Below, piece by piece: positions 3 to 60,054 of a stretch of 60,054 nucleotides of DNA. The translations under genes and the position numbers were made by a program. The stretch spans positions 1-60,054 of the forward strand of contig JANPJS010000108.1 of NCBI GenBank assembly GCA_031425655.1, given 5' to 3'. The notes beneath the pieces are model-generated. The model ran no database searches, was not told the origin of the DNA, and saw nothing but the letters and a program-made list of their open reading frames with translations. Origin of the DNA: Abditibacteriaceae bacterium (GTDB lineage: Bacteria; Armatimonadota; Abditibacteriia; Abditibacteriales; Abditibacteriaceae). Numbering within the stretch: position 1 is the stretch's first letter; every line of letters begins with the position of its first letter.

Positions 3-115
3 ATAAACACGGATGACAAGCGATTTTGCCTTGTGCTGACAAAGGCACAAGGCAAAATCAACAAATCGAAATCCGTGTTTATCGGGTGCCCTCTGGGCGG
101 ATTCATCAGTGGTTT
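3..115. repeat. Palindromic repeat related to family A
   Basis: ataaacacggat...atccgtgtttat and gattttgccttgtgc/gcacaaggcaaaatc inverted pairs; 18-mer motif at 83-100. Confidence 0.6.
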
Positions 116-147
116 ATTTCTTTAGGCGCTCTTAAAGACGATTTTCG

Positions 148-1098
148 ATGAATGTTTCTTACCGAAACGGCCTGCATTTGCCCGACAGCGATTTGTGGCT
201 TGACCCGCACCATGCGCGCGAAATGGCGGTCGTGACGCACGCGCACGCCGATCATATGTGCGCGCATCAGCGCGTGCTGGCCACGCCCGCGACGGTGGCC
301 ATGATGCGCGTGCGAGGCGCGAGGCGATGCAATTTTCAGCCGGCGGAATGGGGCGAAGTCGTCGAAATCGGCGGCGCTGAGGTGACTTTAGTGCCCGCCG
401 GCCACGTTCTCGGTTCGGCGCAAGTGCTGGTGGAACACGATGGCGTGCGCCTTTTGTATTCCGGCGACTTCAAATTGCGGCCCGGCCTGAGCGCCGAAGC
501 TGCCGTGGTGCCGCCCGCCGACATTTTGGTCATGGAAACCACTTTCGGCCTGCCGCGCTATCGTTTTCCCGCCGCAGAAGAAGTGCATTCGCGCATCCGC
601 GAATTTTGCCGCGAGGCTTTGGAATGCGGACACGCGCCGGTTTTGTTTTGTTACAGTCTGGGCAAAGGTCAGGAAGTGTTAGCCGGGCTGAGCGGCGTGG
701 ACTTTCCGATTTATCTGCACGAAAAACACTTCGAGATGACCAATTTGTATCGCGCTTTCGGCGTGACGCTGCCGCATTATCAGCTTTACCAGCCGGGACG
801 CGCTTTAGATGGAGTTCTGCTCTGCGCGTCGGGTTGCCGCAAAGGGCGCTGGTTCGCCGAACTCGAACGCACCCACGATTTACGCACCGCGTATATCTCC
901 GGCTGGGCGCTGGATGCGGGCGCCGCGTGGCGTTACGGCACGCACGAAGCGTTCCCGCTTTCCGACCACGCCGATTACGATGAACTCATGCATTACGTTC
1001 GTGCCAGCGGCGCCCGGCGCGTTTACACCACGCACGGCTTCGCCGCAGAATTCGCCGCCGATTTGCGCGCCTGCGGACTGGATGCGCGCCCGTTGTAA
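148..1098 (+). CDS. MBL-fold/beta-CASP metallo-hydrolase (DNA ligase-associated exonuclease-like)
   Basis: Motifs THAHADH, AGHVLGSA, YSGDF, ETTFG, LSDHADY typical of beta-CASP nucleases. Confidence 0.85.
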   Translation: MNVSYRNGLHLPDSDLWLDPHHAREMAVVTHAHADHMCAHQRVLATPATVAMMRVRGARRCNFQPAEWGEVVEIGGAEVTLVPAGHVLGSAQVLVEHDGVRLLYSGDFKLRPGLSAEAAVVPPADILVMETTFGLPRYRFPAAEEVHSRIREFCREALECGHAPVLFCYSLGKGQEVLAGLSGVDFPIYLHEKHFEMTNLYRAFGVTLPHYQLYQPGRALDGVLLCASGCRKGRWFAELERTHDLRTAYISGWALDAGAAWRYGTHEAFPLSDHADYDELMHYVRASGARRVYTTHGFAAEFAADLRACGLDARPL

Positions 1099-1128
1099 GA
1101 AACCGCCTGACAGAGAAATCGCGCCGCA

Positions 1129-1162
1129 AAAAGGGCGAGGAGTCATGACTCCTCGCCCTTTT
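1129..1162. terminator. Bidirectional intrinsic terminator
   Basis: Perfect 34-bp palindrome aaaagggcgaggagtcatgactcctcgccctttt between convergent genes. Confidence 0.85.
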
Positions 1163-1179
1163 CACATCGGTGCGCCGTT

Positions 1180-1734
1180 TTACATCTTTTTCATCGCCGG
1201 TTTGGCAGCGGGCTTGGAAGCGGCGTCCTTTAACTGCGCCATCGTCATGCCGCACTTCGTGCATTTGCCGTTCGACAATTTCACTTTGCACATGGCGCAC
1301 ATCGCGGCGGCAGTCATGCCGCACTTGGTGCATTTCATCGTGGTGCCGTTGATGGATTTCATCGGCGCCTTGCAGTGAGAACACGTCATCGGCGACAACA
1401 TACACTTCGCTGCCGATTTGGCGGGTTCACCTTTCAACTGCGCCATCGTCATACCGCACTTCGTGCATTTGCCGTTCGACAATTTCACTTTGCACCCGCT
1501 GCACATCGCGGCGGCGGTCATGCCGCATTTGGTGCATTTCATTGTGGTGCCGTTGACGGATTTCATCGCGGCCTTGCAGTGAGAACACGTCATCGGCGAC
1601 AACATACATTTCGCTGCCGATTTGCCTTTGCTGCTCGACACGGCGGACTTTTCTCCGGCTTGCGCGGGCGACACGATTAGCGTGTTCGCCAGCAACCCCA
1701 GAACGACTGCGACGACTGTCAATTTTCCAAACAT
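1180..1734 (-). CDS. Exported Cys/Met/Lys-rich protein with two 68-aa repeats (CxxC, heavy-metal-binding-like KCxKCGM)
   Basis: Signal peptide ending AQA; SD AGGAG upstream; 204-nt direct repeat; 18 Cys and 19 Met in the mature part. Confidence 0.8.
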   Translation of the reverse strand: MFGKLTVVAVVLGLLANTLIVSPAQAGEKSAVSSSKGKSAAKCMLSPMTCSHCKAAMKSVNGTTMKCTKCGMTAAAMCSGCKVKLSNGKCTKCGMTMAQLKGEPAKSAAKCMLSPMTCSHCKAPMKSINGTTMKCTKCGMTAAAMCAMCKVKLSNGKCTKCGMTMAQLKDAASKPAAKPAMKKM

Positions 1735-1825
1735 GGTCTTGCTCCTTTCCCGGCTGATGCCGGGCTACCACGCTCAATTTTTGCGTGCGGTGTTCATAAA
1801 ACCGTCACAGTGACGGGAGGAGAAT

Positions 1826-2737
1826 TCATTTTTTCTCGTCGAACTTCAGCGATACCGAATTGATGCAGTAACGGAGTCCGGTCGGCTTCGGGCCGTCCTC
1901 GAAGATGTGGCCTAAGTGCGATTCGCAACGCGCGCAATGCACTTCGGTGCGAACCATGCCATACGCCGTGTCTTTGGTCGTTTCCACGTTGTCGGCTTCA
2001 ACCGGCTGATAAAAGCTGGGCCAACCGGTGCCCGAATCGAACTTGGTTTCCGAGCTGAACAGCGGCTCGCCACAGGCAACGCACTTGTAAACGCCGTCTT
2101 TGTGGTTGTTCACATATTCGCCGGTGAAGGCGCGCTCGGTGCCGTGCTGGCGGGCCACCTGATACGCTTCCGGCGACAGCGCGGCACGCCATTCGGCGTC
2201 GGTTTTTTCGATCTTTCCCATTTTCGCTCCCTTTGAATTCTGTGTCACGGTCTCGAAACCGCCATTTTTCGCGTCGGCGCGCAGCGTCACTTTGCTGGCG
2301 CCACCCGCTTGGACAGCAAACGGCAAACGATAACTCAGCGGCTTAATCAGGCAGTTGCGTTCGCCGTCGTCGCAATACATCACGCGGGCACTGACCACGA
2401 CCGTGCCCTGCCCGCTTTGCCCCGTCGCGAACGCCAATTTCAGCGGCAACGCGAATTGTGTTCCCGTGACTGGCATTTTGCCGGGCAGCGTCAAGCCCTT
2501 GCCTTCCACGCGCGCCTCAAATTTTTGCGGCGCCTTTTTGTTGAGATGATAGCCGTCGGGAAAATTGACCTCGAAGGTCAATTCGCCTTTGGCGCCGGGC
2601 GCTAAGGCCAGTGCTTTCGCCTGAGCTTTCGGCTCCGCCGCGCCGCCGGCGAAAAACGGCACGAGAGCGAATCCGGCCAGCGTCGCAAAACTCCAACCCG
2701 CTAAAAGGCGCACGCCGCGCGATGATCCTTGATTCAT
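1826..2737 (-). CDS. msrB: Exported fusion: Ig-like Cys-pair domain + peptide-methionine (R)-S-oxide reductase MsrB
   Basis: C-terminal [34 protein letters not shown]-terminal hydrophobic signal; ATG at 2737 with TAAGGAG SD. Confidence 0.9.
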
Positions 2738-2839
2738 AATTTTCTCCTTACAGCGTGCCATTTCCAGCAACGCTTTGTTGACACACGATGAAACACGCAA
2801 TGCGCTGCTTTTGTTCCCGTTTGTTACAGATTCAACCCG

Positions 2840-4189
2840 TTACGGATGAGGCCGATAAACATCGCGAGACAAGCGTTGGCGCTGCTCGCCGTCGGCGGTC
2901 TTGCTGATGCGATACGCTTCGGACACCAAGCCGCTTTTGCGCGAAATCGTGCGCGATTCGACTAAAAACGTGCCCTGACGGGGCTGCGTGCCCCACAATC
3001 GCGCATGAAAGCGTGAGCGGCGCAGGAAAGTTTCGACATAAATAGGCCCGCCGCTGTTGTTGCGGAACTTCATGTCTTTGCTGCCCCAATAAATCGCGGC
3101 ATCGCGCGAAACCGGCACATAAGTCACATGAAACATATGCGGATGGCGCTCGATAATCGGCAAACCCGCCATGAGCGCGGCGTTGTAAACCGTGCTCGAA
3201 CACTGGCAAATGCCCGATCCGACGCCGCTGACAACCTGCCCCGACACGAACATTTTGGCTTCTTTCCAGCCGTCTGCGGCGTGGCGCGGCCCGATGGCCT
3301 TATTCGCCGAAAAAACGCCGTCTTCAGGCACAATCGTGCCGTTGACCAACTTGGCTGCCATGCGCAAATTGTTGGTGCGCCCGCGAATGCGCGCGTCGTA
3401 AGGCGACGCGTATTCAGCTAAAAGGTGCGGAAAGCCCTCCGGCGCGCCCGGCGTTGCGGCATTTTCAACCGGCGCCGTCGTCGCAGTGCGACTAACCACG
3501 AGTGGCACGTTCAAGCGCGGCGGCTGCGCTTCGAGCGCGTCTTTTGCGCGCCACGCCGAGCCTTCGACAGCCAAATTCACGCGCGTCCAGCCCGAACTGA
3601 GGCCAACAGCCACATCCGTATTGTTGGCGGTTTGTGCAGACTTTTCGACGCGGTTGACTTTGTTGGAAAGCGCCGTCATCACGCGTTGAGCGGCTTCGAT
3701 TTCTAATGAGAAACGCAGTGGCACATCGCGTTTCAGAGAGCGCGCCTGCGCCAGCAACGCGCGATACGGAATCGTCACGCCGAGTGCGGCACGGCTCAGC
3801 GTCCAAGTTCGCGCGCCGTCGTCTAACTTAACTTCGCTTTGCAGCTTAGCGGCAAAAGCGGCCTTGAGATTTTGCAGCGCCTCAGCATCGCTCAGGCCGT
3901 AAACCGAAACGCCGCCGACACTGGAAATCGTCGGCGCAATCGGCGTGGCGTCGGGAAGCGTTCCACGCACCGGCGGCTGATTCAGCAAATCGTCGGGCGG
4001 ATGCGGCGTGTCCGTAATGATGACAACGAGCGGAATCAGCGGAGGTTTGGCCGCCGGCGTGGGTTTGGCTGTGGCACGCACCGGCGTTGATGGAATCACA
4101 TCGGCGGGCGCCGGCAAATTTTGCGCGAAAGCGCCGCGCGCACTCAGCAACGCGGCGATGGACAGATAGCGAAGGATACAATTCGACAA
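2840..4189 (-). CDS. VanW family protein, exported
   Basis: RTNNLRMAA, FSANKAIGPR, GSGICQCSSTVYNAAL, ERHPH, RDAAIYWG, DMKFRN; likely TTG start at 4189 with GAGG SD. Confidence 0.85.
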   Translation of the reverse strand: MSNCILRYLSIAALLSARGAFAQNLPAPADVIPSTPVRATAKPTPAAKPPLIPLVVIITDTPHPPDDLLNQPPVRGTLPDATPIAPTISSVGGVSVYGLSDAEALQNLKAAFAAKLQSEVKLDDGARTWTLSRAALGVTIPYRALLAQARSLKRDVPLRFSLEIEAAQRVMTALSNKVNRVEKSAQTANNTDVAVGLSSGWTRVNLAVEGSAWRAKDALEAQPPRLNVPLVVSRTATTAPVENAATPGAPEGFPHLLAEYASPYDARIRGRTNNLRMAAKLVNGTIVPEDGVFSANKAIGPRHAADGWKEAKMFVSGQVVSGVGSGICQCSSTVYNAALMAGLPIIERHPHMFHVTYVPVSRDAAIYWGSKDMKFRNNSGGPIYVETFLRRSRFHARLWGTQPRQGTFLVESRTISRKSGLVSEAYRISKTADGEQRQRLSRDVYRPHP

Positions 4190-4261
4190 CGTTTCGACCT
4201 CGTGAAATTTCAGGATTGGTTTTAGTTTGGGCAAAAATTCGACACCGTGCAGCAACAGGTC

Positions 4262-4363
4262 ACCCGATGGTAAACCACCGGGCTGAAACACGAAGCCCCT
4301 CCGGGGCTGAGAGCATAGCCCCGGAGGGGCTTCGTGTTTCAGCCCGGCCATTCATGGCCGGGT
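4262..4363. repeat. REP-like composite palindrome
   Basis: Perfect 31-bp inverted arms 4278-4308 and 4317-4347, each with an internal AGCCCC-N3-GGGGCT hairpin, plus flanking small hairpins. Confidence 0.8.
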
Positions 4364-4380
4364 TTCGTTGGGCTAACGCC

Positions 4381-7320
4381 TCATTCTTCGCCCCGTGCGC
4401 GACGTTTGGCGCGGCGCAAACGCTCCATCGGATCGTCAGCGTCCTCTTCGACAGGCGGCGCAGTCTGCGGCGAGGGCGCACTCGAAACCGGAGGCGGCGC
4501 CGAGGCAATAGGCGGCTGCGACGGCGCAGCCACACCGCCCGGCGGAGCCGTCGGCGCTGCCGTCTCGCGTCTCGCGTCTCGCAACTCCGTGTCTCGCAAC
4601 TCCGTGTCTCGCGTCTCCTGCGCGGCGCGCTGTTTGGCTTTCAGCAAGGCGCCCATCGCTTCGTCGCGCGGCGGCACAGCGGGTTTGTCGGTTTTGGTGC
4701 CGCGCGGCGTTTTGGGACGCTTCAGACGCGCCCGCAAGTTTTGCAATTCGGTTTCGCCCCACATCAGGCGGCGCACCGCCACATCCAGCGGAAACAGAAT
4801 CGCCGCGAGAGCTAAAAGCGGCAGCCAGATGTCGCGCGGCGCACGGGCTGGAATGCGCGGTCGTGTGAACACTTTTCCCGCATCTTTCAGTGAAAAGCGG
4901 TCGCCGTTTGCGGTGTCGCTGAGTTGGCCGAGCAGAAAATCGTTGGTGCCGATGGCGTTGTATTCCGGCGAATATGGCAGCACCGCGCCGGTGATTTGCG
5001 AGGTTTCCTTGCCGCCTTGTTTGGTGCGGATGTTCGCCAGGTAAGTGCCCAGTTGGCGCGCGTCGAACGTGGCTTCGTAGCGGCCCGGCCCGGTCTGGTC
5101 GAGCGACAAATCCTGCGATTTCATGTTGGGCATGACAAGGCGCGCTTTCGGGTCGAGGAAGTTCAGGAAATTGCCCTTCGCATCAATCGCTTCGATGCTG
5201 ATTTTGCCTTTGCCTTTGTCAATGTCCACCAGAGTTTGCAGGTTGTCCGACGAGCTTTGCCTCATGCTCCAGCGCACCGATTGCGCCCAGAATTTGGAAT
5301 AGCCCGCCCACGGCAGCCACGCCGCCGCCCAGCGTTGGCGCGCGTCGCTGGTGAACGCCACAGCCTTGCCCAAACCGTATTGCCACGTCGCCAAAACCGG
5401 GTCATCGTTATGGCTGATTAAAACTTTTTTAGCGGTTGGCTTGATGCTGGTGCCGACGTAGCCAAGCAACGGCGGCGTGCTGGAAATACCATTGAGAATC
5501 GTGCTTGGTGCGCCTTGTTTGGGCGAGAAAGTTTCTTCGACAATGGTTGAGCGCGAAACCGTGGCGGCCTCTTTAAGAAAGATATTGGGAATCTGGTTCG
5601 GGCGCATCACAATATAAGCGCGCCCGTTGTGCTGCCGGGCGATTTGCGCCATAGATTTCGTGGTTTGCCCGCCGATGCCGTCGTGAGGATTGATAATAAT
5701 CGTCGAAACCGTGATTTTCGCGGCTCGGAATTTCTGCACAAGGGCCGGGCGCGGCGGCGACGGGTCGCCGTCACTGAGAATGATGCAGTGCTTCAGCGCC
5801 GCTTTAGTTTTCATCAGGCCGTCGTAGCAGACTTGCAGCGCGGCGTCGAAATCGGGCATATCGCCGGGATTGACTTTGCGCGTCATGGCCAGCATCCGCG
5901 AGCGATTCGGCCCCACGCGCAGCATTCCGCCGGGGAAAAGCCACGTCGCGTCGAAGCCGTAAACGCAGATGCCGGCCCAATCGTTGTCGCCGAGTTGGCG
6001 AATCACCTGCGAGCCGATGGATTTCGTCCAATCGTTGCCGCCCTGAAACTCGCAGGAGTGCATAATCATCGCAACCGCGCCGCCGGGGATGATCTGCATA
6101 TTTTTGATGTCCATCGTGACGGGCAGCGTTTCTTCGACCACCGTTTCACGATAGCCGCCCGGCCCAAACGAGTATTCGCCGCCGACCATGACCAATCCAC
6201 AGCCCAAATCGCGCACGTAGGATTGCAGCGAAAGCATCTGTTTTTCGGTTAAATCCCACGCCGGCACGTTGTCCAAAATGATGGCGTCGTAAGGCTGCAT
6301 CGCCGTCAAATTCGCCGGCAATCCGCCTTGACCGCGCATCTCGACGGTGACTTTTTCGCGTTGTAGCGCCCGCGCCAAAAACGCCGATTGTTGCGTGTCG
6401 CTGCCCACCAAAAGCACGCGCGGCTTGCCCTGCACGTTGACAAAACCCAGTGCGCGGTTGTTTTCCACGGTTGTGTCGGCGGTTTGCGGCGACTCGATTT
6501 TCGCCTCGAAAGTGCTGGCGCCGGCTTTCTGCACGGTCTGGGGAAACACGAAAACATTTTTGCCGGGCGTCAATCGCACCGCTTTGGAGCCAAGATATTC
6601 GCCGTCGCGGAACAATTTCAGCGTGGAATTGGCTTCCTGAGTCGAGCGCACGACGGCTTTGATTTCAATCGGCTCGCCGATTTTGGCTTCGCTGGGCACC
6701 GTCAGCTTTTCGATCAGCACTTCGTGGCGTTGAGGAGAAGTCAACGGCACCACGTCAATCGCCACTTCGTTGTTGCCCGCCACTTGCGCTTCGCCTAATG
6801 CATCGCCTAAGTTTTCGTTGCCGTCCGAGAGAATCACTAATCGCTTTTGCTTGCCGTCGGGCAAACTCGCCATCGCCAGACGAATCGCGCTGGCCATATC
6901 GGTAAATTCGCTGGCCGTAACGGTCTGAATTTTGTCAATTTTGGTAATTGGGCCGGGGGCGATTTCGACATACGGGTCGCGTCCGAAAACGACGACACCG
7001 GCCCAATCGTCCTTGCTTTTCTTACTTTTCAGCGCATTATTGATGAATTCCTGCGCCGAAACTTTGGCGTTCGCGCCGACGGAATCGGAAAAATCCACGA
7101 CGAACATCGTGGCGATGTCGCGGTTGAAGCGCACGAATTGCAATCCGGCTAATGCCAGCACTATGAGCGTGAGGACAACGATGCGCAACCCGACGGCCAC
7201 GCGGCGCCGCAGCGTCGAAAGGTCGGCGAGGGAACGCCCGGCCAGCAGCGCGAAATAAAGCGCAAACGGCGGCCAGAGCAAAAGCGCCCACGGATTGGTA
7301 AAAGACAGGCCGAAATTCAT
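4381..7320 (-). CDS. Membrane protein with vWA and glutamine-amidotransferase-like domains
   Basis: N-terminal TMs, MIDAS-like DFSDS, LSDGNEN, GGEYSFGPGGY, second vWA (LSDG), WQYGLGKAVAFTSD, C-terminal TM and Pro-rich tail. Confidence 0.85.
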   Translation of the reverse strand: MNFGLSFTNPWALLLWPPFALYFALLAGRSLADLSTLRRRVAVGLRIVVLTLIVLALAGLQFVRFNRDIATMFVVDFSDSVGANAKVSAQEFINNALKSKKSKDDWAGVVVFGRDPYVEIAPGPITKIDKIQTVTASEFTDMASAIRLAMASLPDGKQKRLVILSDGNENLGDALGEAQVAGNNEVAIDVVPLTSPQRHEVLIEKLTVPSEAKIGEPIEIKAVVRSTQEANSTLKLFRDGEYLGSKAVRLTPGKNVFVFPQTVQKAGASTFEAKIESPQTADTTVENNRALGFVNVQGKPRVLLVGSDTQQSAFLARALQREKVTVEMRGQGGLPANLTAMQPYDAIILDNVPAWDLTEKQMLSLQSYVRDLGCGLVMVGGEYSFGPGGYRETVVEETLPVTMDIKNMQIIPGGAVAMIMHSCEFQGGNDWTKSIGSQVIRQLGDNDWAGICVYGFDATWLFPGGMLRVGPNRSRMLAMTRKVNPGDMPDFDAALQVCYDGLMKTKAALKHCIILSDGDPSPPRPALVQKFRAAKITVSTIIINPHDGIGGQTTKSMAQIARQHNGRAYIVMRPNQIPNIFLKEAATVSRSTIVEETFSPKQGAPSTILNGISSTPPLLGYVGTSIKPTAKKVLISHNDDPVLATWQYGLGKAVAFTSDARQRWAAAWLPWAGYSKFWAQSVRWSMRQSSSDNLQTLVDIDKGKGKISIEAIDAKGNFLNFLDPKARLVMPNMKSQDLSLDQTGPGRYEATFDARQLGTYLANIRTKQGGKETSQITGAVLPYSPEYNAIGTNDFLLGQLSDTANGDRFSLKDAGKVFTRPRIPARAPRDIWLPLLALAAILFPLDVAVRRLMWGETELQNLRARLKRPKTPRGTKTDKPAVPPRDEAMGALLKAKQRAAQETRDTELRDTELRDARRETAAPTAPPGGVAAPSQPPIASAPPPVSSAPSPQTAPPVEEDADDPMERLRRAKRRARGEE

Positions 7321-7529
7321 TCGTTGGGTGTTGGGTTTTGGGTGTTGGGTCTTGGAATATTCTGCGGCGGAATTTCATCGCCTGTGAGCGTGACGATTTG
7401 GCCGTCGCGCCAGATGACGATGCTTTCGCCGAGCCGCCGGTGCCGTTCAATCGCTTCGGCGACGGCTTGTTGTGCGACGACGAGCATTTTCGCGGTTTCG
7501 TCACTCATTTGGGATAGCGTAGCCTGCAT
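7317..7529 (-). CDS. Small protein, putative partner of the zeta-like ATPase
   Basis: AVAEAIERHRRLGESIVIWRDGQIV resembles small proteins coupled to COG4185 ATPases; GGAG SD; overlaps upstream gene. Confidence 0.65.
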   Translation of the reverse strand: MQATLSQMSDETAKMLVVAQQAVAEAIERHRRLGESIVIWRDGQIVTLTGDEIPPQNIPRPNTQNPTPNE

Positions 7530-8082
7530 AAATTCTGCTCCATGCTTCAAAGTCAAAAATAAGAGTAGGTTTCTGATGCCCGCCCTCGGCAATCACAGTT
7601 TCGGAAAGTGCAGCGTTGTTGAATATGCGCCAAGTGTCCGCGAGTGGTTTATAAAGCTCAATGAAATTTTTTCGACCCGCTTCATAACGCCGCCTGATTA
7701 CGTCTTCGGGAATGTTATGTCCGCCTGCGCGCACTCTGGCCGCCACGCGCGCCACGTTCATTTCGGCGTCCGGCAGCCAAACGAAAATCAAATTGAAACG
7801 ATAACCACGTTTTCGGCATTCTTGTATAAACGGAACATAAGCCCGCGCCGCTAATGTGCTTTCAGTCGCAAAATTCACGCTTTTCGCGGCCAATTCGCGC
7901 AGACGGCGCATCATCAAAAATCCGGCTTTGAAATCTACGCTGTCCGGCTGAAATGGCGATAATCCTCCGGCGATGAGATCAGCATTGACGAATTCGCGGC
8001 ATCCCAATTCCGGCAGCAGTTTGAGCGCCAACGTTGTTTTGCCGGCACCGTTCGGCCCGCCGAAAAGAAAAAAATCAGGCAT
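7501..8082 (-). CDS. Zeta-toxin-like P-loop ATPase (COG4185)
   Basis: GGPNGAGKTT, FVNADLIA, ESTLA, RVRAGGHNIPEDVIRRRY. Confidence 0.85.
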   Translation of the reverse strand: MPDFFLFGGPNGAGKTTLALKLLPELGCREFVNADLIAGGLSPFQPDSVDFKAGFLMMRRLRELAAKSVNFATESTLAARAYVPFIQECRKRGYRFNLIFVWLPDAEMNVARVAARVRAGGHNIPEDVIRRRYEAGRKNFIELYKPLADTWRIFNNAALSETVIAEGGHQKPTLIFDFEAWSRIYAGYAIPNE

Positions 8083-8629
8083 CGCTTTTGGCTTTCCACC
8101 GCTCCGCCGACGCGCGCACGCTTTCCAGCGCTTGTTCGCGGGTTTTGAAGCCGGTTAACGTGATTTCGTTGCCTTCAAACGTTTGATAATCCTTCAAAAA
8201 GCCTTCGATTTCGCGCAGAAGACGCGGCGAAACGTCGTCGAGCGAGCGCATTTCGTCCCACGTCGAGGCGGCGCCTTCGAGAGAAACCGGGCAGCAGATT
8301 AAGCGGTCGTTTTCGTCGCCGTTTTTGATTAAGCCGATGGCGCCCAAAACGCGCGCCCGCACCAGACAACCGGGAAAACACGGCTCATCAATGAGCAGCG
8401 CCACATCTAAAGCATCGCCGTCGTCGGCGTGGGTTTGCGGGATGAAACCGAAATCGCAGGGCCACGTCATGCCGCCGCGCAAAATGCGGCGCAGTTCGAT
8501 GACGCCGTAAGTTTCCTTAAACGCGAACTTGTTGCGCGTGCCGCGCGGCGTCTCAACGATGACGTTGACCGCATCTTTTTCGATGAGGTCGCAAAACGGC
8601 GGAATGTGATCGAAAGAATAAACAGACAT
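8075..8629 (-). CDS. ppa: Inorganic pyrophosphatase family I (divergent)
   Basis: VIVETPRGTRNKF, DFGFIPQT, DGDALDV. Confidence 0.8.
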   Translation of the reverse strand: MSVYSFDHIPPFCDLIEKDAVNVIVETPRGTRNKFAFKETYGVIELRRILRGGMTWPCDFGFIPQTHADDGDALDVALLIDEPCFPGCLVRARVLGAIGLIKNGDENDRLICCPVSLEGAASTWDEMRSLDDVSPRLLREIEGFLKDYQTFEGNEITLTGFKTREQALESVRASAERWKAKSDA

Positions 8630-8635
8630 GGTTCA

Positions 8636-8710
8636 AGTGTGGAGTGTGGAGTGCGAAATTCGGAGTGCGGAATTTTTCACTCCGCACTCCGAACTTCGCA
8701 CTCCACACTC
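8636..8710. repeat. Inverted heptamer tandem repeat (GGAGTGY / RCACTCC)
   Basis: About 5 units followed by about 5 reverse-complement units, filling the Uma2-ppa spacer. Confidence 0.85.
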
Positions 8711-9344: not shown

Positions 9345-9380
9345 GAACAGGCCTCCTTTCGTCCAAGTCCTCCACGCAGT

Positions 9381-10355: not shown

Positions 10356-10378
10356 TTTTAATTTTGCATTTTGCATTG
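10293..10378. repeat. Inverted heptamer repeat (AAAATGC / GCATTTT) overlapping two CDS ends
   Basis: aaatgca x4 ... ttttgca units; encodes FCILHFAF of the NHL signal peptide and CKMQN at the methyltransferase C-terminus. Confidence 0.85.
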
Positions 10379-12218: not shown

Positions 12219-12245
12219 CGATAAACCTCCGTTCCTCTGATATTG

Positions 12246-12388
12246 AAGCTTTCAATGGAACACGGGCCTTCGGCACACGGAAACAACCACAGATTTACAC
12301 GGATTTTTGATTAAACCGTGTAAATCCGTGTCGTTTCGGGCGCCCTCTGGGCAGGATCGGCGCAGCCGCCGTGTTCCATTGAAAGCTT
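12246..12388. mobile_element. MITE-like element, family A
   Basis: 20-bp TIR aagctttcaatggaacacgg; internal cacggattt-type repeats; homolog at 54428-54559 in opposite orientation. Confidence 0.7.
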
Positions 12389-12522
12389 GAAGCCACCAGG
12401 GCAATCGCATTAGGATTTTTCTGGGCCACAAAGGATTTTTAGCAGGTAGTTGTGCGGTTTCACGACCTTCCGCGCCCTTTCTCGGATGTGGTGGAATGAC
12501 CGACGCATCGTTAACCGATGCG

Positions 12523-13824: not shown

Positions 13825-13857
13825 GAGGAGTTCTTCAGTCTACTTCCATCATAAAAT

Positions 13858-13926: not shown

Positions 13927-13935
13927 CCAACTGCC

Positions 13936-14412: not shown

Positions 14413-14433
14413 AATTATGCCTCCGGTTGCGTT

Positions 14434-21590: not shown

Positions 21591-21747
21591 CAATGGCATT
21601 AAGTTAAGCAATTGCGAAACGTAGCTTCCCTCCCTCCGGGAGGTATTGAGGGAGGGCAAGACGGCGGCTTTGCCGCCGTCAACCCCCACCTAACCTCCCC
21701 CAAAGGGGAGGAACTACGCCTCGGAATGCCTTAACTTAATGCCATTG
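21591..21747. mobile_element. Non-autonomous MITE with IS4-like ends
   Basis: Perfect 18-bp TIR caatggcattaagttaag (similar to the IS4 end TAATGCCGATCAGTTAAG); degenerate 10-bp flanking duplication tgcttgcgcc/ggctgacgcc. Confidence 0.75.
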
Positions 21748-25092: not shown

Positions 25093-25246
25093 AGAGTCTG
25101 TATGCAAATACAGTTATTGCGGTTACGGGTGGCTAAAATCGGCGGTTTTCTGCGGCAATGAGCGCTTAAAATAGCCTCCAAAAGCGCGTTTTAACCTCAT
25201 TTCCCGGCCTGCCAGCCTGCAATAACTGTATTTGCATACAGACTCT
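25093..25246. mobile_element. MITE with 28-bp perfect TIR
   Basis: agagtctgtatgcaaatacagttattgc ... gcaataactgtatttgcatacagactct; no ORF. Confidence 0.8.
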
Positions 25247-25292
25247 AACTCATGTTACGCGGTGAAACTATAGTAGCGGTGCAAAGAGCCAA

Positions 25293-25521
25293 GGCAATCG
25301 CATTAGGATTTTGAAGAGCCAAAGAGAGTGTCATTCCGAGCGAAAAAACGAGCCTCAGCGAGTTTTGGAGTCGAGGAATCTTGCCGTAGCACCGAAAATC
25401 AAGATTCCTCGACCCTGCCCAAAGGGCGCCCGTTAGCTCGTTCCACTCGCAAATCCTGCCCAGAGGGCGCCCGCTCGGAACGACACCCTCTTTGGCTCTT
25501 CAAAATCCTAATGCGATTGCC
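25293..25521. mobile_element. MITE with ~50-bp TIR (GGCAATCGCATTAGGATTTT ends)
   Basis: Arms 25293-25342 and 25472-25521 differ at 2 of 50 positions; a solo end occurs at 12399-12420. Confidence 0.8.
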
Positions 25522-25656
25522 CTACCCAACTTGCTACCTATTCGGTTTTTTTGGAGTGCGCGAACCAGTTCACGCACTCCAGAGGCAACAAGTCGCTTTC
25601 ATTAAAGCGTCTTCCGGCGCTGCTGCTGTGCTTTGGATGAGCTTGTGCGGCGGCAA

Positions 25657-40669: not shown

Positions 40670-40671
40670 TG

Positions 40672-47245: not shown

Positions 47246-47274
47246 AAATTCAGACCTCTTTCATAAGTCATGAA

Positions 47275-47395
47275 ACCCCCACCCAGCCTCCCCCGTTGGG
47301 GAGGAGTTATGCTCCGAACAACCAAATGTGGCTTTCGAGGCGTAGTTCCCCTCCCTCCGCGGGCGTCCTATGGGCAGGTGGTTAGGGAGGGCAAA
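47275..47395. repeat. C-rich/G-rich palindromic repeat related to the interior of the 21591 MITE
   Basis: cccccacccagcctcccc..ggggagga and gtagttcccctccctccg..agggagggcaa shared with about 21620-21720. Confidence 0.7.
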
Positions 47396-49271: not shown

Positions 49272-49352
49272 CGAGAAGTTAAGAAGGTAGCGAGATGCCA
49301 AGTATATCGTGCAAGCGCGCCTTGCTCCGGTAAATCAGATAAACCAGAATCC

Positions 49353-50075: not shown

Positions 50076-50076
50076 T

Positions 50077-50835: not shown

Positions 50836-51034
50836 TTAACCCAAGTTGCCCCGACTCGGCATTTTTGGAGTGCGCGAACTGGTTCGCGCTTTTCAAGCCG
50901 ACTTGTCGGCGTTCAACCTCAAGCATTGGGAATAACGGGCTGTCAAACTTCCAAAACAAAGGGTTTGTGCCGATAAATCGGCTCCTGAAAGCGGCGCCAA
51001 GCCGCCGCACTCCATAAGCAGCAACTTGGGTTAA
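50836..51034. mobile_element. MITE-like element with REP-type GGAGTGCG hairpins
   Basis: TIR ttaacccaagttgc / gcaacttgggttaa; truncated relative at about 25523-25580. Confidence 0.7.
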
Positions 51035-51042
51035 CTAACTCC

Positions 51043-54422: not shown

Positions 54423-54427
54423 GCTTG

Positions 54428-54559
54428 AACTTTCAATAGAACACGGGCTTCGCATCCTGCCCAAAGGGCGCCCGAAACGGCACGGATTTTCGCAGGTCAA
54501 TCCCAAAATCCGTGTCAATCCGTGGCTGTTTCCGCGAAATCCGTGTTCTATTGAAAGTT
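54428..54559. mobile_element. MITE-like element, family A
   Basis: 19-bp TIR aactttcaatagaacacgg; homolog of 12246-12388. Confidence 0.7.
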
Positions 54560-54619
54560 TTGACTTCGCTGCACGCCGTTGTTATGCCTCTGCACTGGTA
54601 AAATGCCTTATGAAGAACC

Positions 54620-55759
54620 ATGAGCGAAAATATCCCCGACGTTTCCAAAGAAGAAATCCTGCGCGCTCTCAGCGCGATTAATGACCCCGATTTAGGCCGC
54701 AACATCGTTGAGCTTGGCTTTGTGCAGAAAGTGCGTTCCTGCGACGGCCTCGTTGCTTTCGACATCGAACTGACCACGCCCGCCTGCCCGGTCAAAGATC
54801 AGATGAAGCAGGCCGCCGAAGATATCGTGCGCGCTTTGCCCGGCGTGAAAAACGTAAATGTGACGATGACCGCGCAGACGCGGCAGGCTTTCGACCCGAA
54901 ATCGGTTATTCCCGGCGTGAAGAATGCGATTGCGGTGGCGTCGGGCAAAGGCGGCGTCGGCAAAAGCACGACGGCGGTCAATCTGGCGATTGCGCTGTCG
55001 CAAACCGGCGCCAGCGTCGGCCTGCTCGATGCCGATATTTACGGGCCTTCGATTCCGATTATGTTGGGCGTGCCCGAAGGCGAGCAGCCGATGGGCGAAG
55101 ACACGCCCGAAGGCCAGCGCATCTGGCCGATTGAGCGGCACGGCATCAAATTGATGTCCATCGGCTTCGTGACGCCCAAAGACAAGCCGATTGTCTGGCG
55201 CGGCCCGATGGTCGGCAAGATGATCCAGACGTTTCTGACTTCCGTGGTTTGGGGCGAACTCGATTACCTTGTGATTGATTTGCCGCCGGGAACGGGCGAC
55301 ACGCAGCTCACGCTGATGCAAAGCGCGCCGTTATCGGGCGCGGTCATTGTGACGACACCCGAAGCGGTCGCTTTAGAAGACGTAATGCGTGCCGGGCGAA
55401 TGTTCGAGACAATGGCGCAGGCGGGCACAGCGGTGCCGATTTTGGGCGTGGTCGAAAACATGAGCTGGTTCGAGGCGCCGGGCGGCGAACGCATCTATTT
55501 ATTCGGCGAAGGCGGAGGCGCGCGTGCAGCGCAGGCTTTCGAGGTGCCACTTCTCGGCCAAGTGCCGCGTGACATAGACATCACACGCGGCGGCGACCGG
55601 GGTCTGCCGATTACAGTCGCCGATGGCGATCATCCCGCTTCGCACGTTTACCGTGAAATTGCCGGCAGTGTGGCGCGCCTTATTTCCACCATCGCCATGA
55701 AAAGCAGCTTCGACCGCGAAACGCTGAAATCGGCGGAAGAAAAAGCCGCGCAGCAGTAA
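54620..55759 (+). CDS. mrp: Mrp/NBP35 (ApbC) Fe-S carrier ATPase with N-terminal DUF59
   Basis: DPDL, LTTPACP, SGKGGVGKST, DADIYGPS, WRGPM, DLPPGTGD, VENMS. Confidence 0.95.
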   Translation: MSENIPDVSKEEILRALSAINDPDLGRNIVELGFVQKVRSCDGLVAFDIELTTPACPVKDQMKQAAEDIVRALPGVKNVNVTMTAQTRQAFDPKSVIPGVKNAIAVASGKGGVGKSTTAVNLAIALSQTGASVGLLDADIYGPSIPIMLGVPEGEQPMGEDTPEGQRIWPIERHGIKLMSIGFVTPKDKPIVWRGPMVGKMIQTFLTSVVWGELDYLVIDLPPGTGDTQLTLMQSAPLSGAVIVTTPEAVALEDVMRAGRMFETMAQAGTAVPILGVVENMSWFEAPGGERIYLFGEGGGARAAQAFEVPLLGQVPRDIDITRGGDRGLPITVADGDHPASHVYREIAGSVARLISTIAMKSSFDRETLKSAEEKAAQQ

Positions 55760-55772
55760 GTTGTTGGTTTTG

Positions 55773-55815
55773 AATCGAAAGGGCGCGGGAAAATATTCCT
55801 GGCGCCTTTTCGATT
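55773..55815. terminator. Hairpin terminator after mrp
   Basis: aatcgaaagggcgc ... gcgccttttcgatt. Confidence 0.65.
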
Positions 55816-55825
55816 ATGTCTGGCT

Positions 55826-58800
55826 TTACGGTAGCGTCGGTTTGCCGGCAATGTCTATTTCGCGGTAAACGTTAAAGCCGTTTTCCCCGCTTTTGAAATC
55901 GAAGCGCACGGCCACCACGCCGCTTGCGCGCACGCCTTTGCCGTTGTCGAGCGGGCCTCCGGTAGCATTGGCAACGATGATTTGCGAGGCGCCGCCGTTG
56001 CATTGAATCGCAAGCGAAGTCGAAAGCGGCACGAATTTATCGGGTGCTCCGGCCAGAGCGATGGAAACGGTGTAATGCTGACTGGCGCGATTGTCATTGT
56101 GCGCGGCAATCGTGGCGATTTTGGTGATGTCGAAGCCGGTTTTGCTTCGCGTAATGTCGAAATAAAAGGTGAGCCAATCGCCGTCGCCATAACCGCGAAA
56201 AGTCTTGCCATCGTCGGCGGTGGCCGCATCGCCCGCGCCGTTCAATGCGGTGCCGTTCCGCAGAGCATCGGCGTTGGTGCCACCGCCAGTGTGCGCGGCG
56301 TGTTCGTCCACACGCAACAGCGAGGAATTGGCGCTGAGCGCGATTAAATCGTCTTTCGCCACGTCTTTCTCGAAAGCCGAGGCGTCGTCGGCGGTTTTGG
56401 CGGTCGCATGGGGTGTTGCTGACAACGACACGACATTGGCGGAAACAGTTGGCGCCTCTTCAGCGGGCAATTCGATGAGCTGGCCGGTCAACACGAATTG
56501 GTGGTTGCCGGCGGGCAGCTTCGCGGCGTGGCCATTCGGCACCGCGCGGCCTTTGAGCGTGACTTTTGGATTCACAAAGCGGGCAACCGGCAGCGTCACG
56601 TCGGCACTCGTGCCGGATGGGATTTTCACGTCCAGCGTCATGCCGGTTGCGGTCAGCTTCCACGACACGTCCACGTTGCCGTGCGGCGTCGGGACGCGGC
56701 CATTGGCCCATTTTAAATCGCACAGCGTGGGACGAATCTCCATGGTGCTGAAAGTCGGCGTCAGCGGCGAAACGCCGAGAATCCGCGCGCTCATTTGAAT
56801 CAAAGGCGTGCCGCCCCAGCCGTGACTGAGATCGCCGCTGTTCCACATTTCGTGAAAGGTTTGGGTGTCGGGCTCGATTTTCCAGCGCCGCATTTGCTGC
56901 GCGCCTAAGCTGTCGAAAAGGCCCGCGTGAGCCAGCGCGCCCAATGTGAAGTGCATAAAATACGGCTGGCAATTCGGCTTGGCGGCCATGACGCGCGCCA
57001 TAATATCGGCTTGTTTTGCTTTAGGCGCCAGGTCGTAAAGCACCGCCAACGAATTATTTTGCGCGCTGAAAGTTTCGATGTCCTTATCAGCAGGCAGCCA
57101 TTGGCTCGGCTTAACACTTGTCACGAACGGTTTGCCGTCGCGGTAAAGTCCCTTTTCGTCGTTCCACAGCTCGCGGTTGTAAGCCTCGGCCACTTCGCCG
57201 CGCAGCTTGTCGTAAGTCGCCGCGCGCGGGGCGTCGCCGGTGATTTGCGATAAACGCCGCGCGTCCAGCAAAGCGCGATAATAAAACGCCGTCATGTAGC
57301 CTTGTCCGATGACGGCGGGCGGATGATGCGCGCCGAAGCCGCCGATGTCCACCCAATCCATGAACATATAGTCGGGCGCCTGGGAAATCAGGCCGGTTTT
57401 GCCGCGCCATCCGGTGAATTTATCCAACAACCCGTGAACCTGCGGCGCCAATTCGCGCAGCGTGGCTGCGTCGCCGGTGAAATCGTAATAATCGAGCAGC
57501 ATTTGCAGCCAGAGCAGCGCGTAACTGGTGTGGAAATTCACGTAATCCGTGTTGACTAAAATCGCCGCGAATTTGCGTGAATCCTGCCGCGTGAGCGCCG
57601 GCTCGTGGAACGTGTAGTAGTTGACGAGCGATTCGATGAGATAATCGCCGGGATCGCTGATCGGCTCCTGATGATCGGGCGAATCGAGATAACGATCCTG
57701 CATACAGATGTGCGTCTGCCAGCGGCAGGCCGTCCAGAGACGGTTGAGCGCGTCGTCGCTGCACGCGAAGCGGCCTTTATAAGCCACCGGCTGCGCGCTG
57801 AAAACCGCTTTTATATTTTGAATCTCGACCGGCGTTTTGACGCCCGTGACTTTCACATTAAGAAACGCAAAGCTGTCGTAATAGGGCGTCTCGAAATACT
57901 GGACGCCGTCGCCGAGCAGCATCGAAGCCGCGTGACGTCCACCGCCGTTGCTTTCGGCGAAATCAATTGTTAGCGTTGCGCCTGCCCCGCCTTTAACCTT
58001 GAGTCCAGCGTAGCCGCTCAATACGCGGTCGTATTGCAGCGTGAAAGCGCCATCGGCGTTCAGCGTGACGCCGCTGCCATTTTGGAAAGGCTTTGCGGGC
58101 ACTTCGAGGCCCGGACTCACGCGCACCGCACGCAGCGCCGGATACGCGATTTCAAGCGTCTGCGGCAGTTCGCTCGGCCAAAGCTTGGGCCAGTGATCGC
58201 CTGCCCCGACGCATTGTGGCCACGCCGCGTCGTCGAAACCTGCGAGTCGCCAACCCACCGGCTCTTTGGCCGCCACATATTTCAGACCGCCTTGCAAATA
58301 CTCGCCGGCTTGGCCGCGCCAGCTTTCATCACTGCGAATTGGCACGACGGATTTATCTTTGAGCGTCGCTTCGGCTTGAAAAAACAGACCACGCGAGCCG
58401 CTCGAACCCCACCACGCGCTGAGACGGTCGCGGAACACCTCGACTGCGATGGCGTTGGCGCCTTTGTGAAAATACGGCGTGAGATCGCAGTAATCGGCGA
58501 AGTAAAGGCCGGTTTGTCCGTTGAGTTTGCCGGGATAGTCGGCGCCGGGATCGGCGGGGCCACGCGCGACTAAATTCCCATTGACGTAAAGCCGATAACG
58601 CCAATCGGCGCTGACCCACGCTGTCACGCGCGACGGCGCTTCGCTCATCGTAATTTGCTTGCGAAAGCAAGCGACGGGCGTTTTCACGGTGTCGGCCTGC
58701 GGCGACAGCCAAACCCACGAAGCCGACCACTTCGGCGTGGCTTTAAGCTCCGGCGACGGCTTATAGCCCGTGGCCTCGACGCCGCCTTCGACTATTCGCG

Positions 58801-58921
58801 GCACAACGCCAGACACGACAATCGGCCCGCGCGGGTCAACGTCAATTTCAGCGGCGCGAACGCCGCCCGGCGACAGAGTTGCGGCAACGATTGCGCTCAT
58901 GGTTAGAATCGAAACTTTCAT
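55826..58921 (-). CDS. Exported GH78 alpha-L-rhamnosidase-like protein with C-terminal beta-sandwich
   Basis: YRLYVNG..VARGP, LNRLW, PGDY, FMDW, TFHEMW..DLSHGWG, VPTPHG. Confidence 0.85.
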   Translation of the reverse strand: MKVSILTMSAIVAATLSPGGVRAAEIDVDPRGPIVVSGVVPRIVEGGVEATGYKPSPELKATPKWSASWVWLSPQADTVKTPVACFRKQITMSEAPSRVTAWVSADWRYRLYVNGNLVARGPADPGADYPGKLNGQTGLYFADYCDLTPYFHKGANAIAVEVFRDRLSAWWGSSGSRGLFFQAEATLKDKSVVPIRSDESWRGQAGEYLQGGLKYVAAKEPVGWRLAGFDDAAWPQCVGAGDHWPKLWPSELPQTLEIAYPALRAVRVSPGLEVPAKPFQNGSGVTLNADGAFTLQYDRVLSGYAGLKVKGGAGATLTIDFAESNGGGRHAASMLLGDGVQYFETPYYDSFAFLNVKVTGVKTPVEIQNIKAVFSAQPVAYKGRFACSDDALNRLWTACRWQTHICMQDRYLDSPDHQEPISDPGDYLIESLVNYYTFHEPALTRQDSRKFAAILVNTDYVNFHTSYALLWLQMLLDYYDFTGDAATLRELAPQVHGLLDKFTGWRGKTGLISQAPDYMFMDWVDIGGFGAHHPPAVIGQGYMTAFYYRALLDARRLSQITGDAPRAATYDKLRGEVAEAYNRELWNDEKGLYRDGKPFVTSVKPSQWLPADKDIETFSAQNNSLAVLYDLAPKAKQADIMARVMAAKPNCQPYFMHFTLGALAHAGLFDSLGAQQMRRWKIEPDTQTFHEMWNSGDLSHGWGGTPLIQMSARILGVSPLTPTFSTMEIRPTLCDLKWANGRVPTPHGNVDVSWKLTATGMTLDVKIPSGTSADVTLPVARFVNPKVTLKGRAVPNGHAAKLPAGNHQFVLTGQLIELPAEEAPTVSANVVSLSATPHATAKTADDASAFEKDVAKDDLIALSANSSLLRVDEHAAHTGGGTNADALRNGTALNGAGDAATADDGKTFRGYGDGDWLTFYFDITRSKTGFDITKIATIAAHNDNRASQHYTVSIALAGAPDKFVPLSTSLAIQCNGGASQIIVANATGGPLDNGKGVRASGVVAVRFDFKSGENGFNVYREIDIAGKPTLP

Positions 58922-59024
58922 ATTTTTCTTGGAAAAGACGACTGCGGATGCCTCACAGCATAGCAAAGCCGCTTTCGATTAACCGGCGGGCATCCCGCGA
59001 AATGCTAAAATCAAAGCAGCTTCA

Positions 59025-59131
59025 ACCGCGAAATCGCCGGCAGCGTGGCGCGTCTTATTTCCACTATCGCCATGAAAAGCAGCTTCGACCGCGAAACACT
59101 GAAAACGGCGGAAGAAAAAGCGGCGCAGTAG
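59025..59131 (+). repeat. Second copy of the mrp 3' end
   Basis: 98/107 nt identical to 55650-55756; ends in an in-frame TAG. Confidence 0.92.
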
Positions 59132-59159
59132 GGGTTGGTATGGCAGAACGGGGTTGGGT

Positions 59160-59627
59160 TTACTCCGAGGGTTTTTTCGTTTCGGCGAGGTCGGCGACGG
59201 CGGCCACTAAATACAGAGTTTCAATGGGTTTATCCAGATGGCTTTGAAAACCGGCGGCTAAGGCTTTTTGCTGAGGTTCAATGCCGGTGTAGCCGGATAA
59301 CGCGATAGCTGGCGTTTGGATGCCGCGTGAACGCACTTCACGAATTAACTCGAAGCCGTCCGGGCCGTCCATGCCGATGTCGCTAATCAAAATGTCGAAG
59401 TTTTCGTGGGCAAGAATCTCCAGTGCATCCGCGGCGTCGGTGGCCTGTGTGACGCCGGCTCCATAAACACTCAGCACATCGGTGATGGCTTGGCGCGCAT
59501 CGGCTTCATCATCTACTACCAGAACGCGTAGCCCTTCAAGCGAAGGATGGAAATCTACCGCTATAGGTGAGGGGCGTGTTGATGGAACGGGTTGCGACGG
59601 GCCGTAGCTTTCCTGAGAAGAGTCCAT
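59160..59627 (-). CDS. Stand-alone response regulator receiver
   Basis: VLVVDDE, ISDIGM, ALSG, HLDKP; start uncertain. Confidence 0.85.
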   Translation of the reverse strand: MDSSQESYGPSQPVPSTRPSPIAVDFHPSLEGLRVLVVDDEADARQAITDVLSVYGAGVTQATDAADALEILAHENFDILISDIGMDGPDGFELIREVRSRGIQTPAIALSGYTGIEPQQKALAAGFQSHLDKPIETLYLVAAVADLAETKKPSE

Positions 59628-59774
59628 AACGATAACGATGCTCCTGTCAATTGTCCTTCGGGTGCAGATTATGCGCGAAGTCGGATGGCATGGGAAATGT
59701 GGAACTACAGTATAAGCAACTCGGTTGCCCCGCGATATAGACATTTGATGCGGCGCTTGAGACTGATTGTATCG

Positions 59775-59839
59775 CCATCGCCATGAAAAGCAGCTTCGAC
59801 CGCGAGACGCTGAAAACGGCGGAAGAAAAAGTGGGGTAG
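59775..59839 (+). repeat. Third copy of the mrp 3' end
   Basis: ccatcgccatgaaaagcagcttcgaccgcgagacgctgaaaacggcggaagaaaaag, reading IAMKSSFDRETLKTAEEKVG-stop. Confidence 0.92.
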
Positions 59840-59853
59840 TAGTTAGCGAGAGA

Positions 59854-59896
59854 AATAAAGAAGCGCCACGGAAAGTTCCCGTGGCGCTTCTTTATT
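59854..59896. terminator. Intrinsic terminator after the third mrp copy
   Basis: aataaagaagcgccacgg ... ccgtggcgcttctttatt. Confidence 0.8.
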
Positions 59897-60054
59897 CATG
59901 TTGAAGTTACTTCCTCATGTTACGCGGTGGACTTATAGTAAGCGGTGTGAAGAGTGGCTTCGCCACTCCTTAAAACCCCACCTGCCCAGAGGGCGCCCGC
60001 CCTTGGTAAGGGGGCGAAAGAGTAACTTGGCAGAAGAAGGACAGCGTTATTCTT

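Follow-up and report, generated by a model that had tools for sequence, protein, structure and literature searches.

A 19-nucleotide hairpin cassette that replaces five bases of unrelated host repeats in an Abditibacteriaceae genome, a candidate mobile micro-element

In a stretch of 60,054 nucleotides (nt) from an Abditibacteriaceae bacterium (contig JANPJS010000108.1, the whole of which is called the window here), a motif of about 18 nt recurs inside several unrelated repeats. This raises the question of how one short sequence came to lie within such different hosts. Within the 5.98-Mb genome (G000), which is assembled in 327 contigs, the window is contig C108, and we followed the motif through G000 and through related and distant genomes. 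The repeated unit proved to be 19 nt long and to take the place of five host bases. We put at roughly 60% the probability that it is a discrete cassette of this kind and a gene-less mobile micro-element, copied in by a putative trans-acting enzyme.

A cassette that replaces five host bases

A preliminary description of the window had reported seven copies of an 18-nt motif, all of them intergenic and all within larger palindromic elements. A pattern scan recovered the seven copies on the same strands, five of them exact and two with two mismatches each. Every copy lay between long open reading frames (ORFs), and every copy lay inside a multi-copy repeat. The exact 18-mer occurred five times in the window and never in 100 shuffled versions, and at up to three mismatches there were seven matches in the window, whereas the shuffles averaged 0.31 and never exceeded 2. 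Scans of the window for Rfam families and tRNAs gave no match. Over the whole of G000, the motif had 137 exact matches; allowing up to one, two, and three mismatches raised the number to 255, 309, and 361, respectively.

The 18-nt length held for the core of the motif, but the true unit was one base longer because the preceding C belongs to it. The unit is thus the 19-nt sequence CCTGCCCARAGGGCRCCCG, that is, C followed by CTGCCCARAGGGCRCCCG. An information profile of 271 copies gave 1.4 to 1.96 bits inside the 19-nt core and less than 0.4 bits in the flanks, and the drop occurred within one base. Two positions of the 19-mer were polymorphic, an A/G position in the loop and a G/A position at nucleotide 15, where 107 of 284 copies (about 40%) carried A. 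The G variant includes an 8-bp palindrome, GGGCGCCC, which the A variant breaks. Folded as single-stranded DNA (ssDNA), the unit formed a small hairpin, GCCC-ARA-GGGC, with the stem TGCCC/GGGCA in the A variant, and compensating stem variants were found as well (CCCG-CAAG-CGGG in three copies and CCCA-CAAG-TGGG in one). Inserts of 19 nt that were defined by their flanks comprised 199 exact copies, 55 with one mismatch, 15 with two, and 15 with three to eight differences.

Next to these filled sites we found many sites that lacked the unit. Specifically, the left and right 40-nt flanks of all copies were compared with the genome, and the matches were paired. The gap between paired flanks was 19 nt in 720 pair counts and 4 nt in 650, with none at 0 to 2 nt; gaps of 0 to 12 nt were present at 368 distinct sites. 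Empty alleles were available for 42 of 142 host groups. The modal gap was 4 nt in 34 of these 42 groups, and the base before the gap was C in 40 of the 42 empty consensuses. In the filled consensuses of the 42 groups, this base was T in 22, C in 10, A in 8, and G in 2, and the junction base over all 284 copies was T in 151, C in 66, A in 60, and G in 7. The event is a replacement, in which five host bases (the C and the four that follow it) give way to one variable base and the invariant 19 nt. Single-pair alignments showed to the base that there was no duplication and no junction homology. The earlier proposal of a micro-insertion into pre-existing, unrelated repeats was therefore right in that the unit was added later, as the abundant empty alleles indicated, and wrong in that the addition was not a plain insertion but a five-for-twenty replacement. 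Apart from the leading C, no common target word was seen.

A second cassette, CCGACCCGCAAGCGGGTGCCCCG, was found among the flank-defined inserts. It is 23 nt long, has 15 copies in G000 (e.g., C231:12352, C27:4740, C304:6790, and C150:3642), and replaces C-GCGG and C-GCCT slots that are also used by the 19-mer. As in the first cassette, the preceding C was changed to T or A, and both cassettes start with CC and end with CCCG. A hybrid cassette, CCTGCCCGCAAGCGGGCGCCCG, was present in three to four copies and used the host slots of the 19-mer. The second cassette and the hybrid suggested a single mechanism in which the tails and a stem are recognized, and not one particular sequence. In such a mechanism, a putative trans-acting enzyme would copy the cassette into new sites, and recognition might depend on the small hairpin and the conserved single-stranded tails. 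Speculatively, the left junction may owe its variable base to untemplated addition (A>G≈T>>C) to the opposite strand ahead of the joining step.

Host repeats, direction of the change, and genomic location

In palindromic hosts, the empty form completed the host palindrome and the cassette broke it. In the case of the empty form CCCTCTCCAT-TGCG-ATGGAGAGGG, which has a 10-bp stem and a TGCG loop, the swap removes CATTG, namely, the last three stem bases and two loop bases. Because the empty form completes the palindrome, the cassette appeared to be the later arrival, and we infer that the direction of the change was gain and not loss. Three young pairs of filled and empty alleles were identified, whose host copies, 95 to 99% identical, are set apart solely by the swap. 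The filled allele on C90 and the empty allele on C121 were 99.3% identical over 139 flank bases, with the nearest filled relative at 57%; the corresponding values were 97.8% and 83% for C128 versus C258 and 95.0% and 72% for C86 versus C180. On trees built from the flanks only, the changes of filled state in five host families numbered 17, 13, 12, 13, and 4, versus 19.0, 13.8, 17.9, 15.6, and 3.7 with shuffled labels. These trees use 139 short, repeat-derived columns, and part of the label changes may be tree noise or gene conversion, so we took them only as an indication of more than one event per family. No allele from which the cassette had simply been excised was present among the paired-flank gaps, which favored copy-in over cut-and-paste as the probable mode.

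The flanking genes were about 70% identical within the genus, and synteny was lost at the 12337 locus. Nine cross-species alignments gave a single shared filled site (C44:12418 versus L044), and the other spacers could not be aligned. Judged by the homologous coding flanks, the cassettes at C44:12418 and L044 are at an apparently equal position in two species, and the two copies differ at the G/A position.

The hosts themselves were diverse. Flank similarity to another cassette locus placed 257 of the 285 copies with up to two mismatches inside other repeats, and the flanks fell into 113 left and 80 right clusters that paired mostly one to one, with few chimeras. Thus, the hosts were not a single family in which the motif was an ancestral part. 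Inspection by eye showed that the hosts included palindromes that resemble miniature inverted-repeat transposable elements (MITEs) and have a 20-nt terminus in common, C-rich hairpins, elements made of tandem 9-nt words, and SRM/CGTC-like hairpins, and one host family was occupied at three different positions. At C25:8794, a chimeric joint (L0/R1) has a left flank from the 'gtcattctgagt' family and a right flank from the 'aaacggctttgaagg' family, with the cassette between them; it resembles the product of recombination between two hosts across the cassette.

With about 300 copies in 5.98 Mb, the density of the cassette in G000 was about 1 per 20 kb. On an ORF map that was crude (greedy longest ORFs, 90.5% of the genome covered), 186 of the 285 copies were fully outside ORFs, 97 were inside, and 2 were partly inside, and the share of the genome outside the map was about 9.5%. 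The motif was therefore not equally common in coding DNA. Forty of the 97 in-ORF copies were in ORFs shorter than 150 amino acids (aa), many others were close to ORF ends, and 17 were deep within ORFs of at least 250 aa. Because the swap adds 15 bases net, it leaves the reading frame intact. The 17 deep copies were in frame, included C28:18941, C128:17693, C267:5874, and C150:9387, and encoded peptides like PAQGAPA or SCPEGAR. In the case of the C128 copy, the gene encodes a 580-aa membrane protein conserved throughout the family, and the cassette was in a loop of varying length (eight orthologues) in which no clean empty allele was readable.

Exact copies in G000 were balanced between the strands (106 versus 105), orientation agreed with the local GC skew in 81 copies and disagreed in 70, which indicated no replication-strand bias, and cassette loci showed no preference for divergent or convergent gene pairs. 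Of 130 neighboring cassette pairs, 36 were separated by less than 200 nt; their distances were irregular and their orientations mixed. The genes bracketed by cassette pairs in G000 had nothing recurrent. These results bear on the idea that the motif is a selected binding site or uptake signal, for instance one that a regulator, nucleoid protein, or DNA-uptake receptor would recognize. Hardly any variation is seen within the 19 nt, the G variant holds a palindrome, and the exact sequence is kept across two phyla (see below), all of which would suit a binding site. However, most copies are inside selfish repeats, the orientations are equal, there is no gene-pair bias, and the density is only about 1 per 20 kb. 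In addition, the A variant breaks the palindrome in more than a third of the copies, and selection leaves the fixed five-base replacement and the acquisition of the motif unexplained. We therefore considered a selected site to be very unlikely.

The copies, hosts, and empty slots of the window are shown in Table 1. The preliminary description had placed two copies in one arm of a MITE near 25293 and none in the matching arm, and it had pointed to an unoccupied relative of the 47360 host at about 21630-21660; both observations stood. The two copies in the MITE are in one arm of the palindrome and the opposite arm is without them, and paralogues of this element were empty at either site (C217:8205, C226:7737, and C215:6625). 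The 47360 host is represented near 21630-21660 by an empty allele. A 20-nt word, TAACCCAAGTTGCTACCTAT, with about 70 copies genome-wide and a variant at about 25523-25541, was the common outer end of several distinct MITE-like families, which suggested that one transposase would serve many host families.

Table 1. Cassettes, host repeats, and empty slots in the window (all host repeats named are multi-copy)
Feature	Position	Strand	18-mer match	Remarks
Degenerate cassette	83..101	-	83-100(-), 2 mismatches	First C changed to T; in repeat 1-138
Host palindromic repeat, family A	12240..12421			Covered by up to 140 genome matches
Cassette CCTGCCCAGAGGGCGCCCG	12337..12355	-	12337-12354(-), exact	T (12356) precedes; host family 'ttcaatggaacacgg...'; empty alleles gccgaC-ACGG-aaacg
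Empty slot C-CTCC	21639..21643	-		Paralogue of the 47360 host; host group L23/R5
Host MITE-like palindromic element	25246..25575			Carries the next two cassettes, both in one arm; each site empty in paralogues
Cassette, AAA loop, G variant	25414..25432	+	25415-25432(+), exact	C precedes; empty allele cctcgaC-TGCG-ttagctcg
Cassette, AGA loop, G variant	25455..25473	+	25456-25473(+), exact	T precedes; empty allele cgctaaC-TCCG-ctcggaatg
Degenerate cassette	47360..47378	-	47360-47377(-), 2 mismatches	A precedes; host repeat 47252-47394
Cassette, AAA loop, G variant	54456..54474	+	54457-54474(+), exact	T precedes; host repeat 54425-54568
Empty slot C-GCGG	54532..54536	-		Other arm of host element 54425-54568
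Host repeat reaching the contig end	59914..60054
Cassette, AGA loop, G variant	59981..59999	+	59982-59999(+), exact	A precedes; host family 'aaaacccc...cccttggtaaggggg'; empty allele aaaaccccC-AACC-cccttgg

Distribution across phyla and the search for an enzyme

The exact 19-mer was counted among 41 related genomes. All four genomes of the genus of the window (g1) carried it, with 211, 109, 23, and 44 copies. It was also present in four of six genomes of genus g6 (3, 2, 14, and 4 copies) and in one of two genomes of genus g4 (1 copy), and it was found in none of the 11 genomes of genus g2 and in none of the other families searched. A scan of species genomes gave at least 87 loci, and Abditibacteriaceae, Thermomicrobiales, Thermomicrobia, Chloroflexia, Herpetosiphonaceae, and Ardenticatenaceae were among the matches listed. 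Lone matches in further phyla were also among the matches listed, and some of these may be due to chance. Exact copies numbered 16, 31, and 10 in three Thermomicrobiales genomes (G042 to G044) and 14 in one Chloroflexia genome. Viral contigs had five loci with the cassette (three of them distinct) and gave no clue to an enzyme.

The replacement itself was repeated in the second phylum. In a host hairpin of G042 to G044, the empty form is CCCTCTC-CATTG-CGATGGAGA and the filled form is CCCTCTC-A, the 19 nt, and CGATGGAGA; 15 of 144 matches were filled. The rows of G045 were left out of this swap count, and in the counts of exact copies given above G047 is the same genome as G003. The flanks adjacent to the cassette had nothing conserved between phyla. 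One locus of this group, G042:C92:399-432, carries the palindromic hybrid CCATCG-CGGGCGCCCG-CGATGG and looks like the result of recombination at GGGCGCCC between cassettes on both strands of one host hairpin.

It is conceivable that the unit has no dedicated mobility and that an ancient entry was followed by spread through ectopic recombination, gene conversion, or template switching at hairpins. The chimeric joints L0/R1 (at C25:8794) and L0/R6 and the palindromic hybrid of G042 are of the kind that recombination would leave, and conversion would also give the mixture of filled and empty alleles on the host trees. However, the hosts have no homology beside the cassette, and yet the borders were equal in 34 of 42 groups and the leading C was present in 40 of 42. 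Furthermore, the same geometry was found in another phylum with the cassette alone in common, and a different second cassette used the same slots. An origin through recombination was thus unlikely in our judgment. The sharp borders, the fixed geometry, the leading C, the repeated use of slots in diverged host copies and by a second cassette, the swap in the second phylum, and the lack of plainly excised alleles instead suggest that the cassette is mobile.

We searched the genomes for an enzyme that might serve as the mover. The carriers are metagenome-assembled genomes (MAGs), in which non-detection is not equal to absence. One candidate was the family of enzymes that moves repetitive extragenic palindromic (REP) elements: a REP-associated tyrosine transposase (RAYT) or an IS200-like Y1 (HUH) transposase would attach to the hairpin, cleave the single-stranded tails, and insert the unit into ssDNA targets. 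The cassette is small, mostly extragenic, and hairpin-forming, has hundreds of copies and unpaired conserved tails, and coexists in G000 with a GTAG-headed REP. In addition, G000 had six Y1_Tnp matches, and every cassette-bearing relative checked had at least one. However, none of the five Y1 genes examined in G000 had a cassette (up to three mismatches) within 1.5 kb, no Y1_Tnp match was found in G042, G043, or G044 (cassette-bearing MAGs whose completeness is not given), and the 11 genomes of genus g2 have Y1 genes and no cassette. The cassette also has no GTAG or CGTC head, and it differs from IS200/IS605-type insertion, which removes no target bases, in that five target bases are lost. For these reasons, movement by a RAYT or Y1 enzyme seemed quite improbable.

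A full-length parent element was considered as well and rejected: the distances from CCTGCCC to GGGCRCCCG formed a 3-nt class (223 cases) with few at 4 to 6 nt, and there was no peak at distances of up to 4 kb. Thus, a footprint of a full-length insertion sequence, RAYT, or intron was not supported, given that there was no longer element between the half-sites, no copy near the five Y1 genes, and no RVT_1 match in the genomes named next. The RVT_1 search addressed another candidate, a retro-cassette whose hairpin transcripts would be reverse-transcribed into nicked targets. The variable junction base resembles an untemplated addition, and copy-in without an excision footprint would fit this scheme. 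However, RVT_1 (PF00078) had no match in the three genomes with the most cassettes, G000 (97% complete), G001, and G002, and G003 had only a weak and broken match, which made the retro-cassette extremely unlikely. The multi-copy proteins of G000 formed only 38 small groups. Neither Y1 nor RVT_1 fits all carriers. The cassette would be copied by an unrecognized family of enzymes or by a universal host enzyme.

Several points weigh against a mobile cassette that is copied in by such an enzyme. No movement was seen directly, and the three public runs, all from one study, consist of contigs that break at the repeats, in which no filled/empty polymorphism could be read. At about 70% DNA identity, the species of the genus are too far apart to yield clean orthologous empty sites. 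As ssDNA, the hairpin is weak, at -3.4 kcal/mol with a z of -0.5 to -1.3. When 38 host groups were folded as ssDNA, the five positions lost in the swap were unpaired about as often as control C positions; with no preference for predicted loops, loop targeting was not supported. Around eight cassette loci of low-copy genomes, 26 neighboring ORFs were scanned; the neighbors were all of housekeeping type, and no family recurred among them. Transposase_31 (Rpn), tried as the mover, had no correlation with the presence of the cassette. The lack of cassettes beside the examined Y1 genes, the crude ORF map, and the short columns of the flank trees belong with these points.

A more general proposal is that hairpin cassettes of 19 to 24 nt with CC...CCCG tails are a distinct class of mobile DNA that parasitizes repeats. 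An undiscovered enzyme would swap exactly five C-led bases, and the class would be active in at least two phyla that have only the cassette in common. We advance this proposal tentatively, at a little short of even odds.

Significance and comparison with known systems

If the cassette is mobile, it is close to the lower size limit of mobile DNA and likely to be among the smallest mobile DNA elements known. The enzyme would swap five bases for a 20-base payload with no duplication and no need for homology, an activity that would be useful in practice for small scarless insertions. The cassettes would also add a second layer of parasitism, repeats within repeats, which can blur the classification of repeat families, and they can disrupt or change hairpins in MITEs, REPs, and repeats linked to nucleases. 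As a simple marker, the exact 19-mer sorts carriers from non-carriers in thousands of genomes, and a phyletic search for the enzyme is feasible. To our knowledge, none of the transposases, recombinases, and retroelements described so far exchanges five defined bases in this manner. No five-base swap by a hairpin cassette was found in the literature on small dispersed or mobile hairpin repeats that we covered, which did not include Elhai et al. 2008.

Some known systems resemble the cassette in part. IS200/IS605 elements and palindrome-associated transposable elements (PATEs) have no terminal inverted repeats and cause no target duplication, move as ssDNA, have two end hairpins, and insert 3' of a kept 4- to 5-nt target. 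The cassette likewise bears a hairpin and has no terminal inverted repeats or duplication, but it has one 13-nt hairpin and five target bases are lost. In contrast to MITEs, the cassette has no terminal inverted repeats, no duplication, and no full-length parent, and its arrival costs five bases. DNA uptake sequences (DUS/USS) occur about once per kb and are common in genes and terminators, whereas the cassette is far sparser and mostly outside ORFs. Unlike clustered regularly interspaced short palindromic repeats (CRISPR), cassettes have irregular spacing and mixed orientation, and the true arrays carry another repeat. Two CRISPR arrays were present in G000, at C194:15959-16706 and C240:12889-14003, with the 29-nt repeat CGGTTCATCCCCGCACCTGCGGGGAACAC at 61-nt spacing; this repeat resembles those of type I-E. 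In mosaic repeats, such as the bacterial interspersed mosaic elements (BIMEs) of Escherichia coli and the Neisseria intergenic mosaic elements (NIMEs) with dRS3, a short conserved module is combined with other modules. Such modules are mentioned in the part of PMC11893778 that was available. The cassette is also a short conserved module joined to several other repeats, but its flanks pair almost one to one, and the empty alleles show replacement and not module shuffling.

REP/REPIN-RAYT systems also resemble the cassette in part. REPs are imperfect palindromes of 20 to 40 nt, and the cassette has 19 to 20 nt. According to the available parts of PMC3116915 and PMC3733652, their repeats are short extragenic hairpins with hundreds of copies and unpaired conserved tails, some of them in frame in genes. 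The cassette differs in that neither strand of its consensus has a GTAG or CGTC head, the stem is 4 to 5 bp, host bases are replaced, no examined Y1 gene is flanked by it, and some carriers have no detectable Y1. A classical GTAG-headed REP, (gta)GGGGCGCAACCTGTTGCGCCC, was present in G000 in 26 to 28 copies, often as inverted pairs (e.g., C69:30987 and C209:4526/4568), which indicated that a REP/RAYT-type system coexists with the cassette. The NTS/SRM hairpin repeats, which are cut by the Ssn GIY-YIG ssDNA nucleases and described by the search word HGTCWY...RNCYNB, similarly have oriented non-palindromic flanks, hundreds of copies, and a range of many phyla (PMC11893778, in the portion available). 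Compared by eye with the word as given there, the cassette does not fit and has no GTC head, and one of its host families, tGTCATTCTGAGc-TTGC-gAAGAATC, does fit. The element at 25246-25575 of the window and the G000 family 'gtcattctgagc-TTGC-gaagaatc' likewise appeared by eye to be GTCAT-headed and SRM/CGTC-like, as far as the available text of Chenal et al. 2025 (PMC11893778) describes such repeats, and the cassette overwrites their center.

The nearest described thing appears to be the small dispersed repeats (SDRs) of cyanobacteria/Nostocaceae, from which the cassette is set apart here on descriptive grounds. Elhai et al. in 2008 reportedly described SDR1-8, of 21 to 27 nt, in Nostoc and its relatives. 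In the parts of PMC4390886, PMC3116915, and PMC2884548 that were available, SDRs are presented as gene-less, very short repeats that are possibly mobile, are nested in other repeats, and have no known mover, and SDR5 is stated in PMC4390886 to enter HIP1 at a precise point, after its third base and before its fourth. The cassette is similarly a dispersed unit of about 20 nt with sharp borders and no gene, found within conserved sequence and other repeats. As far as those parts describe SDRs, the cassette differs in that it is found in other phyla, namely in Abditibacteriaceae and Chloroflexota, is 19 to 20 nt long, and replaces five bases at a C, whereas SDR5 is a plain insertion.

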